IMG/VR virus record: IMGVR_UViG_2563366799_000004
Location: 1 to 30,453 of that record
DNA: 30,453 nucleotides
From: a virus
Taxonomy: Duplodnaviria; Heunggongvirae; Uroviricota; Caudoviricetes
Direction: 5' to 3' (one strand)
The notes below the pieces were generated by a model. It saw nothing but the letters and a program-made list of their open reading frames with translations. It did not search any database and was not told where the DNA came from. Shown piece by piece: positions 1 to 3,687 of the stretch. The translations under genes were made by a program, and so were the position numbers. The first letter of the stretch is position 1. The number at the start of each line of letters is the position of its first letter.

Positions 1-981
1 TCACACCGCCAACCCGCCGCCGAGAGGGTTTAACGTTACTGCGTGTTGCAGGTAATCAGGTGCAAGGTGAGCATAAACCATCGTCTGTTGTATGCTGGCG
101 TGCCCCAGAATTTGCTGTAACGCAATAATGTTCCCCCCGTTCATCATGAACCAGCTTGCAAATGTATGCCGAAGCACATGCGTGGCCTGCCCGCGTGGTA
201 AATCGGGCTTAACCTGTCTGAGCCGTTCGCAGAAGTTTTCATAGTCAACTTTGAACAGTGGCCCGGTGTCGCTGGTCTTGATCTCTTTCTCCAGTTCTTC
301 CGATATGGGAACCGTGCGCTTTTTCCCATTTTTGGTCTTAAGGAACGTCACGCGCCCGTGATTAACCTGCTCACCGCGCAGCGTGCTGCCTTCACCCCAG
401 CGTGCGCCAGTGCTGAGGCATAGCAGTGCTACGCGTCGATCGTCGCCGGTCAGAGTGTCCAGTAATTTGCTGATCTCTGATTTGGCGAGATAGGTCATAG
501 CTGGGGGCGCTTCTTTCAGTGGTTCCAGACCCTTACAGGGGTTATCCTTCCTGAACTCTTCCAGCTTTATCAACGTGCTGAACATCCCGGACAAACGGTA
601 AATATCCCGATTGATCGTTGCTGCACTGATACCGTCTTCCAGCCTTTGGCTTCGGTGCTGTGCAATCATTCGCTTGTTCAGTCGGTTAACGGCTGGATCA
701 CCCAACGCCCTGATCGTTTTATTCAGGTGCCGTTTTTCAATCTCGCCATTTTCCTGAGTCTGTCCATACAGCAGCCACCAGGTATCTAACAACTCGCTTA
801 AGGTGCGGCGGTCAACGCTCGCGCCCAGCCATTCTTTTTTGTCGGCGTTGGCTAGTACATAACGCTCAAAAAGAACTGCCTCTTGTTTCTTCTCAAATCG
901 CCTGCGGATACGTTTTCCGTTACGTCCGCGCGGCCATACGTCCACTTCATATTGACCACCTTCGAGCTTCTTAATCGACAT
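1..981 (-). CDS. int: Phage integrase, tyrosine recombinase (P2 Int-like); complete, stop codon at 1..3
   Basis: 325-aa ORF with C-terminal catalytic region HVLRHTFAS...LGHASIQQTMVYAHL (R-H-R-Y type); SD AGAGGG upstream of ATG at 981; sits downstream of C as in P2. Confidence 0.9.
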   Translation of the reverse strand: MSIKKLEGGQYEVDVWPRGRNGKRIRRRFEKKQEAVLFERYVLANADKKEWLGASVDRRTLSELLDTWWLLYGQTQENGEIEKRHLNKTIRALGDPAVNRLNKRMIAQHRSQRLEDGISAATINRDIYRLSGMFSTLIKLEEFRKDNPCKGLEPLKEAPPAMTYLAKSEISKLLDTLTGDDRRVALLCLSTGARWGEGSTLRGEQVNHGRVTFLKTKNGKKRTVPISEELEKEIKTSDTGPLFKVDYENFCERLRQVKPDLPRGQATHVLRHTFASWFMMNGGNIIALQQILGHASIQQTMVYAHLAPDYLQHAVTLNPLGGGLAV

Positions 982-1050: not shown

Positions 1051-1371
1051 TTAACCAGTTTGTTTCTCGGAGCGGTCTGATCCAGTTGACTCTGGCCCAA
1101 TGTGTGCGAGGGCCGGTGCGATTTGACCAGCTTGAGGGGCGGTCTTATCTGTCATGAGCCAGAGCGTGTATTTTGCAAAGCGGGGATGTTGTGTGATCTT
1201 TAACAAGATTTCACTACCAACGCCTTCTCTTCTCCCCATCTCGTAATGCTTTTGAGTGCCTGCCGGAATACCTGTCAATTCAAAGAATTGAGTTCTGGAT
1301 AGCCCTTCTGCATCCCTTATAGCTCGAATTTTTTCCCCAATCCCGCTTGACTGGGTCTCATTTGATACCAT
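1051..1371 (-). CDS. C: Immunity repressor, P2 C-like
   Basis: Motif KYTLWLMTD...GQIAPALAH matches the P2 C repressor C-terminus; start moved to ATG 1371 (SD AGGAG) instead of the track's TTG at 1395. Confidence 0.8.
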   Translation of the reverse strand: MVSNETQSSGIGEKIRAIRDAEGLSRTQFFELTGIPAGTQKHYEMGRREGVGSEILLKITQHPRFAKYTLWLMTDKTAPQAGQIAPALAHIGPESTGSDRSEKQTG

Positions 1372-1405
1372 ATCCTTCTCCTTGTTGGGTCTCAATTGAT
1401 ACCAT
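1352..1405. promoter_or_regulatory. Putative operator: two 19-bp direct repeats GGGTCTCA(T/A)TTGATACCAT at 1352..1370 and 1387..1405, in the C/cox switch region
   Basis: Direct repeat with one mismatch, 35 bp start-to-start, overlapping the C start codon and C-cox intergenic region; P2-type repressors are known to bind direct repeats. Confidence 0.5.
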
Positions 1406-1482
1406 TAAGATGAAATGGCAACCGCCAATATAAGCAGTTACAAGACGAAATAAGCGCCTAGCGCCAATGGGGATTATGACAC

Positions 1483-2501: not shown

Positions 2502-2714
2502 ATGACCAGACGTGATCAATATAGCTTCATTTTGCATGTTCTTTTACCTGCTATCGAAAATGAAGGCTTAACCATTAAAACCCGCCGTGATGGTGAGTTA
2601 ACCCTTTCTGCCACTGGATCAGTAACCACAAATTTTATCAGCACCCTGCGCCAGCACTGCATTGAAGAATTGCAGCGCCCTTCTATTCCAGCTTCCCATT
2701 ACGGAGTCCTGTAA
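2502..2714 (+). CDS. Hypothetical small protein (70 aa)
   Basis: ATG with SD GAGGAAGAG; its stop overlaps the dam start (TAAAATG), suggesting translational coupling. Confidence 0.45.
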   Translation: MTRRDQYSFILHVLLPAIENEGLTIKTRRDGELTLSATGSVTTNFISTLRQHCIEELQRPSIPASHYGVL

Positions 2715-2715
2715 A

Positions 2716-3687
2716 ATGATCCGCCCGTTCATCAAATGGGCAGGGGGTAAAACCCGTGTCCTCCCTGACCTGCTGCCGCATCTTCCTAAAGCCGACTGCC
2801 TGATCGAACCGTTCGTAGGCGGCGCATCGGTATTTCTGGCGACTGAATACCGCCGCTATGTGCTGGCTGATATCAACCCGGATCTTATTAACCTGTATCG
2901 GGAAGTCACCCGTTACCCGGACTTAGTGATCGATGCGGCCCGCGAACTGTTCAACAGCAAGAATAGCCCGCAGGGGTACAACGAAGTCCGAGCCGCGTTC
3001 AATAAGCAGGTATGTACGGTAAAAAGCGGTGGGTTGCGTTATGGCGTCGAAATGGCGCGCATCATGCGTGCTGCTCAATTCCTGTATCTGAACCGCCACG
3101 GTTATAACGGCTTATGCCGTTACAGCCGTAAGACCGGCTTTAACGTGCCGTTTGGCAAGTATAAGAGCGTCTACTTTCCTGAAAATGAAATCCGCCTGTT
3201 TGCCGAAAAGGCCAACGATACAAAGGCAATATTTCTTTGCGCGCCGTTCCAGCGTTCTCTACAGGTCGTCACGGGTGGCGATGTTCTCGTTTACTGCGAT
3301 CCGCCTTACCTGCCTGAAAGCAAAACAGCCGATTTTACCCAATACCACACCGAACCATTCACGGAAGACAACCACCGCCAGTTAGTCCAGGCACTGCTGG
3401 AAGTTAACCGTAAGCATGGCGTGAAGGTTGTCATTTCCAACAGCGACACCGAAGCCACCCGCGCGATTTATCAGCCTTTCAAGATGCACGAAATCAGCGT
3501 GCAACGTTCCGTCAGCACTGACAAAGACAACCACCAGAAGGCCAAAGAAGTGATCGGCGTGCTGCCTGTCTGCGACTGCTGCGGGCGTTACGGCGGCGGT
3601 TGCCCTGATTGTGGCGCCGTGATGGGTGATGCGACTTACAACGCGATGGTTGCGGCAGGCACGTTTGACGATCTGGAGGAGTTTTAA
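2716..3687 (+). CDS. dam: DNA adenine methyltransferase (Dam family) with a Cys-rich C-terminal extension
   Basis: N-terminal SAM motif FIKWAGGK, catalytic DPPY motif, plus an extra C-terminal CDCCGRYGGGCPDCG tail. Confidence 0.85.
   Translation: MIRPFIKWAGGKTRVLPDLLPHLPKADCLIEPFVGGASVFLATEYRRYVLADINPDLINLYREVTRYPDLVIDAARELFNSKNSPQGYNEVRAAFNKQVCTVKSGGLRYGVEMARIMRAAQFLYLNRHGYNGLCRYSRKTGFNVPFGKYKSVYFPENEIRLFAEKANDTKAIFLCAPFQRSLQVVTGGDVLVYCDPPYLPESKTADFTQYHTEPFTEDNHRQLVQALLEVNRKHGVKVVISNSDTEATRAIYQPFKMHEISVQRSVSTDKDNHQKAKEVIGVLPVCDCCGRYGGGCPDCGAVMGDATYNAMVAAGTFDDLEEF

Follow-up and report, generated by a model that had tools for sequence, protein, structure and literature searches.

A direct-repeat pair over the early promoter as the probable C repressor operator of a P2-like prophage

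Two copies of a 20-nt direct repeat near the left end of the stretch of viral DNA analysed here (30,453 nt in full, referred to as the window) are very probably the bipartite O1/O2 operator of this prophage's P2-type immunity repressor C, as judged by comparing the sequence with those of related prophages and phages. The repeat, TGGGTCTCA(T/A)TTGATACCAT (= TGGGTCTCAWTTGATACCAT), lies on the plus strand at positions 1352-1371 and 1386-1405, the two copies being identical at 19/20 positions, 34 bp apart from start to start and separated by 14 nt. Copy 1 (TGGGTCTCATTTGATACCAT), the proposed O1, fills the spacer of the predicted early promoter (Pe), and copy 2 (TGGGTCTCAATTGATACCAT), the proposed O2, is non-coding, lies at approximately +3 to +22 of the predicted early transcript and falls inside the leader of the C mRNA. 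An earlier note on this DNA had described tandem 19-bp direct repeats, 35 bp apart, overlapping the C start codon. Both 19-mers quoted there are exact in the sequence, GGGTCTCAATTGATACCAT at 1387-1405 as given and GGGTCTCATTTGATACCAT at 1353-1371 and not at 1352-1370, an error of one base; the actual period is 34 bp and the repeat extends one base leftward to a length of 20 nt. The copies are indeed direct repeats, but they are spaced and not head-to-tail, so the term 'tandem' is loose. The overlap with the start codon was borne out, as copy 1 contains the ATG (complement of 1369-1371) within codons 1-7 of C.

The left end of the window holds the int-C / cox switch of a P2-type prophage resembling SEN4/5; these Salmonella phages (SEN4/SEN5, Peduoviridae) align with 85% of the window's first 25 kb at 94.8% identity. 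The immunity repressor gene C (1051-1371, minus strand) encodes a helix-turn-helix (HTH) protein of 106 aa with its recognition helix at approximately residues 37-45 (AGTQKHYEM). Among solved structures its only relative is P2 C (2XCJ/2L49), which is matched at full length (residues 8-106) with E=2e-25; identity is 60% to WPhi C and 49% to P2 C, the match to Pfam HTH_31 is weak, and the protein is a P2-type C repressor. Translation starts at the ATG at 1371, with no alternative start further in, and the same start is given in the NCBI annotation of identical E. coli prophages; a Shine-Dalgarno sequence, AAGGAG (1378-1383, minus strand), stands 6 nt before the ATG and is conserved in the DNA alignment. 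Because C starts at 1371, copy 1 encodes codons 1-7 of C on the opposite strand. [quoted passage not shown] The tyrosine integrase gene int (1-981, minus strand; Pfam Int_N and Phage_integrase) lies downstream of C in the lysogenic operon. Two features of a P2-type switch, a repressor of ~100 aa with an HTH and homology to P2 C and the gene order int-C / cox, are thus both present.

The repeat pair stands out clearly from its surroundings. No further match to the 20-mer with up to three mismatches was found elsewhere in the 30,453-nt window, and hence no distal or extra operators at this threshold, and there were 0 such matches in 100 dinucleotide-preserving shuffles. The repeat score was 17; when the local 205 nt were shuffled 200 times, the score averaged 6.3 and never rose above 9. 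Within the viral collection, paired occurrences of the exact 16-mer were confined to the switch of this prophage type; four matches in viral contigs outside the switch, each single, unpaired and in unrelated sequence, were rejected as chance. A 186-type CI switch was also considered. Such switches have a two-domain CI of ~190 aa, inverted-repeat operators and distal flanking sites (PMC1904263), and this candidate was discarded on the grounds of a 106-aa repressor that is a P2 C homologue and of the lack of further operator-like sites in 30 kb.

A promoter scan placed the predicted Pe on the plus strand with the -35 hexamer TTGACT at 1347-1352, inside the C reading frame, and the -10 hexamer TATCCT at 1371-1376, overlapping the C start codon by one base. 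Copy 1 occupies exactly the 18-nt spacer between the two hexamers. The early transcript is predicted to start at ~1383-1384, which places copy 2 in its first bases as described above. The scan itself was without enrichment over shuffles (2 sites found against 1.4 expected) and TATCCT agrees with the consensus at only 3/6 positions. However, the placement, weak from the scan alone, is strengthened by conservation across the three types of switch cassette (A, B and C; the window carries type A), making Pe a well-supported prediction. The hexamers are TTGACT/TATCCT in type A, TTGACG/TAACAT in type B and TTGACA/TATATT in type C, the last pair being near consensus; TTGAC, TAnnnT and the 18-nt spacer length are kept in all three types and the spacer sequence changes. 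Two direct repeats over the Pe core, 22-34 bp from centre to centre, are a feature of P2-type switches and are present here with a period of 34.

The repressor promoter Pc could be assigned only tentatively. A minus-strand match, TTGAGA (1395-1390) / TATGGT (1372-1367), was rejected as Pc because its transcript, which would start downstream of the C ATG, could not express C; the match arises from the sequence of the repeat itself. Inspection by eye of several hexamer pairings in the interval 1417-1502 yielded no convincing -35, and none of these pairings is kept in all three types and in the relatives that carry insertions; a candidate Pc -10, TATATT (complement of 1427-1432), from which a transcript start at ~1420 would be predicted, is accompanied by a poor -35. 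The earlier note had spoken of a divergent promoter region. It is the genes that are divergent, but Pe and Pc are convergent (face to face) in P2-type switches (PMC1904263), where their transcripts overlap. Both repeats lie on Pe and inside the C leader and first codons.

In its geometry the switch is closest to that of WPhi, whose mapped operator (immunity class III) consists of TTGACA, O1 TATTGGTGAC, TTATAT and O2 34 bp after O1 (PMC1904268). In both there are two direct repeats 34 bp apart from centre to centre, with O1 between the Pe -35 and -10 and O2 downstream of the -10, and both have the order int-C / cox; binding of WPhi C to one half-site alone is possible (PMC1904263), which fits one dimer per site. 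The site sequences, however, are unrelated (TATTGGTGAC in WPhi, GGTCTCAWTTGATACC in the window), and the repeated unit of the window is 20 nt long and clearly dyad-symmetric, compared with 10 in WPhi. The C protein of the window has in addition an N-terminal extension of 8-9 residues, which brings the -35 and all of O1 within the C reading frame and the -10 into overlap with the start codon, whereas the WPhi -35 starts just outside the ATG. The resemblance to P2 is more distant. P2 C is homologous, its helix 3 aligning with residues 37-45 of the window's protein, two direct repeats flank the Pe -10 in both, and the P2 switch has convergent Pe and Pc together with Cox, an arrangement that the window's switch probably shares; however, the half-sites of P2, of 8 bp each, lack palindromic symmetry and lie at a distance of 22 bp. 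The comparison with P2 and other immunity groups suggested by the earlier note thus gave an operator plan held in common with WPhi and a site sequence unrelated to it, and the direct-repeat operator that it had proposed for a P2-type repressor is supported by all the comparisons made, namely gene context, homology of C to P2 C, WPhi-like geometry and co-variation with the HTH (see below).

Switch regions were compared across 24 loci from reference genomes, 80 from viral contigs, 4 E. coli prophages and annotated phages by running a repeat finder on the region around each C start. The published operators of P2 (GTTTAGAT twice, period 22) and WPhi (TATTGGTGAC twice, period 34) were recovered as top matches, which validates the approach. 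Type A (period 34) comprises the window, a Kosakonia locus (L005), E. coli loci L029-L031 and viral contigs L033-L037. Type B (period 33), with repeats GGGTAGGGATCTCTACCAT and GGGTGGTAATCTCTACCAT, was found in phiT5282H, SEN4/5 and ~27 loci in all, and type C (period 33), with repeats GGGATTCATATGACACCAT and GGGTGTCAA(A/T)TGACACC(G/A)T, in L038 and L052. Compared with the window, types B and C have Int proteins 96-99% identical, Cox proteins 96-98% identical wherever a Cox match was scored and C proteins only 85-91% identical, and in both types the two copies are altered in concert at the same position as the window's repeats. In the DNA alignment divergence is confined to the HTH-encoding half of C and the repeat interiors; the rest of C, which encodes its C-terminal half, and all sequence rightward of copy 2 are near-identical. 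Loci L061/L062 provide the reciprocal case: the flanking DNA has diverged, with C at 80% identity (only the tail having diverged), Cox at 65% and Int at 87%, but HTH residues 13-75 match the window's except for A37S, and the two 20-mers match the window's at every position. Since types B and C on the one hand and L061/L062 on the other dissociate these components, the repeats co-vary with the DNA-binding domain of C and not with Cox or Int. An operator that co-varies with the recognition helix, as between immunity classes, is a P2-type feature and is present here as three types on a near-identical backbone. The expectation that the repeats define immunity specificity is therefore supported by their co-variation with the HTH domain of C across relatives, and would apply to the C repressor.

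The recognition helices read AGTQKHYEM in type A, AGTQKYYET in type B and ASTQKQYET in type C. Residue 42 is H, Y or Q respectively and aligns with Tyr36 of P2 C, which is positioned for DNA contact and whose replacement in Y36A abolishes operator binding (PMC2995052). We infer from the co-variation that specificity is conferred through the inner bases of the 8-nt arm (GGT-MTCA-A), chiefly by residues 42 and 45. The closest sequenced phages, SEN4/SEN5 and Enterobacter phage phiT5282H, have a near-identical backbone (Int 99%, Cox 96-98%) and the same promoter and operator layout, but differ in carrying the type B cassette with its period of 33, a C protein 85-87% identical and the helix 3 sequence AGTQKYYETGR, and are predicted to be heteroimmune to the window's prophage; in the literature searched, no studies of their operators were found. 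The arms of types A and C are little different (GGTMTCAA and GGTGTCAW), and these two types may not be fully heteroimmune. Residues 3-7 of C also change with the type (SNETQ in A, EIPTP in B, SYESL in C): as O1 is part of the C coding sequence, no change of immunity specificity can leave them unaltered.

The earlier note had left it undecided between the repressor and Cox as the protein bound. Binding by Cox, which would then shut off the C promoter, might be expected from the position of the repeats between C and cox in the switch region and from the directly repeated boxes near Pc that P2 Cox binds (PMC3936717). However, Cox is almost unchanged in relatives with different repeats and is only 65% identical in L061/L062, where the repeats are identical to the window's. 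The architecture is also different, since Cox binds arrays in which six or more 9-bp boxes recur every 10-11 bp and 70 bp or more are protected (PMC3936717), and the repeats, two 20-mers 34 bp apart, do not show the features of such an array (at least 4-6 boxes, 10-11 bp pitch, ~70 bp). A separate array with a 10-bp pitch (1431-1457, plus strand; TAAGCAG at 1431, CAAGACG at 1441 and TAAGCGC at 1451) co-varies with Cox instead, being kept in types A, B and C (Cox >=96%) and absent in L061/L062; it overlaps the candidate Pc -10 and is a low-confidence candidate for Cox binding, separate from the C operator. The repressor half of the alternative therefore stood and the Cox half did not: the double dissociation and the cox-box architecture rule the latter out as a working explanation and leave it a very slight probability. 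Binding of the repeats by some other protein, such as Int at arm-type sites, a host factor or a satellite-encoded regulator, has a precedent in the directly repeated arm sites bound by Int in P2-like phages (PMC3448106). The P2-type arm consensus tgTGGaCa (PMC3448106) is absent from the repeats, though, Int is 99% identical in type B relatives with different repeats, and the repeats sit on the Pe core promoter, where a repressor operator would lie, so that this explanation is extremely improbable.

The pattern of conservation is also relevant to a further explanation, namely that a 34-bp duplication affecting the 5' end of C (start codon and six codons) left the repeat behind without any function. 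Copy 2 does reproduce the C ATG and first codons and opens a reading frame of 15 codons, and in types B and C the reading frame of C is shared by the upstream ATG, which the SEN5 record gives as the start. However, across six type-A haplotypes variable columns number 0/20 in copy 2, 1/20 in copy 1, 3/14 in the gap and 15/20 in the 20 nt to the right of copy 2, so that type-A copy 2, although non-coding (out of frame and without a Shine-Dalgarno sequence), is invariant next to 20 nt that are 75% variable. Three types carry different repeats at the same position with both copies changed together, and the change of period between 33 and 34 means that the frame of the upstream ATG is not conserved (out of frame in A, in frame in B and C). 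The dyad symmetry described below is moreover upheld by matching changes in both arms, and the layout is the same as that of the proven WPhi operator. A functionless duplication is accordingly considered very unlikely. As regards the conservation itself, copy 1 is coding sequence, so part of its conservation could be protein-driven, and the outer GGGT and TACCAT common to all three types include the start codon and are subject to other constraints too.

Each copy of the proposed operator contains a 16-bp near-palindrome (GGTCTCAATTGATACC), a symmetry that the earlier note had not recorded. The core of copy 1 (1354-1369; GGTCTCAT and TTGATACC on the two sides of the centre) has 6/8 symmetric pairs and that of copy 2 (1388-1403; GGTCTCAA and TTGATACC) has 7/8. 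Only 17 of the 30,438 16-mers in the window (0.056%), the core of copy 2 among them, reach 7/8 symmetry, and the arm GGTMTCAA occurs exactly three times in the 30-kb window, each time as an arm of one of the two copies. The type B core has the same centre with different inner bases (GGTAGGGA and TCTCTACC, 7/8), and the type C cores are symmetric at 7/8 and, in L052, at a perfect 8/8 (GGTGTCAA and TTGACACC). As symmetry is kept in types B and C with different inner bases, the inner bases have therefore changed jointly in both arms. A survey across the family was mixed: the repeats are palindromic in the L013 type (GGAACCTATATAGGTTCC) and in L008/L068 (TTCCTATTTAGGAA), and those of L015 and P2 are not, and dyad symmetry is not claimed here as general across the P2-type C family. 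In this clade, the short (8-10 bp) half-sites without internal dyad symmetry of the P2 paradigm are replaced by 20-nt units with 16-bp symmetric cores.

Near-palindromes located within both overlapping transcripts, one of them directly at the C start codon, could in principle act as RNA hairpins in the C leader or the early transcript and affect translation or stability. However, folding of both leaders was no better than that of shuffled sequences (z = -1.25 for the C leader and +0.06 for the early leader), on which basis this reading was ruled out as an account of the repeats. The palindromes are without a loop (centre AATT), their arm mismatches are C-U or A-G and not G-U, and hairpins leave the co-variation with the C recognition helix unexplained. 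The probability of an RNA role is hence judged to be very small, and the symmetry is taken up here as a property of the DNA sites proposed for C.

Because each copy is a 16-bp near-palindrome, it is proposed that each copy is bound by a single symmetric dimer of C, both monomers of which make specific contacts. P2 C is a symmetric dimer that resembles palindrome binders such as P22 c2 (PMC2995052), superimposing on DNA-bound P22 c2 with an RMSD of 1.9 Å and a helix spacing of 26 Å (PMC2995052). In the model for P2 C one dimer binds each half-site with only one monomer reading the sequence, the P2 repeats being non-palindromic (PMC2995052); in contrast, the window's copies offer two symmetric arms. 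We give about an even chance to the stronger statement that each 'half-site' of this clade is a full dyad-symmetric site, on which a single symmetric C dimer makes specific contacts through both of its recognition helices, and that the direct-repeat operator would be two palindromic operators in direct register, three helical turns apart. Such sites would resemble those of the HTH repressors 434 and P22 c2, with a dyad-symmetric site of 14-18 bp bound by one symmetric dimer and two adjacent sites that would allow cooperative binding. The differences are that C, at ~100 aa, has a single domain and a dimer interface of its own, that there are only two sites here, in direct register and 34 bp apart, and that Cox does not use the sites of C as Cro uses those of CI. 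If the dyad reading is true, the short half-sites of P2 and WPhi would represent degenerate forms that have lost one arm by decay, and the clade would be a natural system for studying how the symmetric P2 C dimer reads non-palindromic repeats.

With the two copies as the C operator, a mechanism can be proposed in which C binding, its stoichiometry and cooperativity and its effects on Pc are inferred from known systems. In the lysogen, C dimers would occupy both sites on roughly the same face of the DNA, ~3.2 helical turns apart, where they would probably touch, bend the DNA and exclude RNA polymerase from Pe. Silencing of Pe would keep cox and the replication genes off and render the cell immune to phages with the same sites; it would also remove head-on transcription into the weaker leftward Pc, so that C and Int would stay expressed. 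Because both sites are in the C leader and first codons, very high occupancy by C could obstruct Pc transcripts and result in negative autoregulation, as reported for P2. Promoter interference at Pc and autoregulation are suggested for this prophage by analogy with P2 and WPhi.

P2, P2 Hy dis and WPhi are the only phages of this family with experimentally mapped operators (PMC1904268). The cassette was found in 9/5,426 complete E. coli genomes, next to cpxP, as well as in Kosakonia and in viral contigs, and among deposited phage records no C exceeds 90% identity to the window's. Immunity classes I-VII and their predicted repeats were reportedly defined by Karlsson et al. in 2006; the immunity type of the window is uncharacterised and may correspond to one of the predicted classes IV-X. 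On those features that can be assessed from sequence, the switch belongs to the P2-type C/O1-O2 kind, and relative to P2 and WPhi the elements that differ are the site sequence (and hence the specificity), the 20-nt unit, the internal dyad symmetry and the N-terminal extension of C, the architecture being otherwise what a specialist would expect of a P2-type switch.

The repeat is thus the probable operator, and with it the probable determinant of superinfection-immunity specificity, of an uncharacterised class of P2-like prophages. The three near-isogenic cassettes A, B and C, which differ essentially in a few recognition-helix residues and inner arm bases, are a convenient natural set from which the recognition code of P2-type C repressors could be deciphered, and the palindromic units make the engagement and stoichiometry of the C dimer on direct-repeat operators directly testable. 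The operator types would also predict which prophages are immune to which phages, which may be of use in work with P2-like phages or satellites.

Upstream of cox, three direct repeats (TAAGCAG, CAAGACG and TAAGCGC) were located at 1431-1457 with a pitch of exactly 10 bp, and a fourth box resembling them is found at 1406-1412. The repeats at 1431-1457 overlap the candidate -10 element of the leftward, lysogenic promoter Pc (TATATT, complement of 1427-1432). The 10-bp-pitch array is kept in all relatives with a Cox identity of at least 96%, but L061/62, two loci with a nearly identical C HTH and identical repeats in which Cox is only 65% identical, lack it. The array at 1431-1457 is probably the Cox operator.

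Within copy 2 (1386-1405), the cox-proximal of the two repeats proposed as operators O1 and O2 of the repressor C, the ATG at 1403-1405 is a duplicate which starts a 15-codon ORF (MVSIETQQGEGYGIK) out of frame with C. In cassette types B and C, which differ from the window's type A in C HTH and repeats and have a period of 33, the copy 2 ATG shares the reading frame of C, and the SEN5 record (L002 1552-1905) takes it as the start of a 117-aa C. C starts are therefore annotated differently from record to record. Dyad-symmetric repeat units were also identified in further P2-type switch classes, among them the L013-type loci (n=11), L008 and L068; the repeat units of L015 and P2 are without dyad symmetry. 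One such unit, CCTATATAGG, occurs twice with a period of 34 and its second copy extends into a perfect 18-bp palindrome (GGAACCTATATAGGTTCC), while TTCCTATTTAGGAA is another. The O1 of WPhi (GTAACCTATTGGTGAC) is similar to one arm of the L013 palindrome.

A 341-aa ORF of the early operon (2662-3687) is annotated in relatives as a Dam-type DNA methyltransferase. GATC lies at the centre of the type B O1 in phiT5282H (GGTAGGGATCTCTACC), is lost from that of SEN5 (GATTTC) and does not occur in the window's own proposed operator copies. All four E. coli prophages of the group that were compared (L029-L032) directly adjoin cpxP with int proximal, and cassette types A and B are both found at this integration site in E. 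coli.

In many close relatives (L005, L007, L002, L029/L030, L038 and L052), the switch and cox are separated by an insertion of 0.45-0.85 kb that holds one to three small ORFs. Its breakpoint corresponds to about 1466-1470 of the window, and it lies at 1977-2772 in SEN5 (L002) and at 1789-2025 in L029/L030. It is missing from the window, phiT5282H, L031 and L032. The site is a variable cargo slot separating the predicted early promoter Pe from its first gene, cox. A small GC-rich hairpin on the minus strand at 1453-1465 (GGCGCTAGGCGCT), followed by a T-rich run and flagged as terminator-like, overlaps the third candidate Cox box and is conserved across cassette types A, B and C. If Pc lies to the right of this hairpin, the hairpin would be within the C leader.
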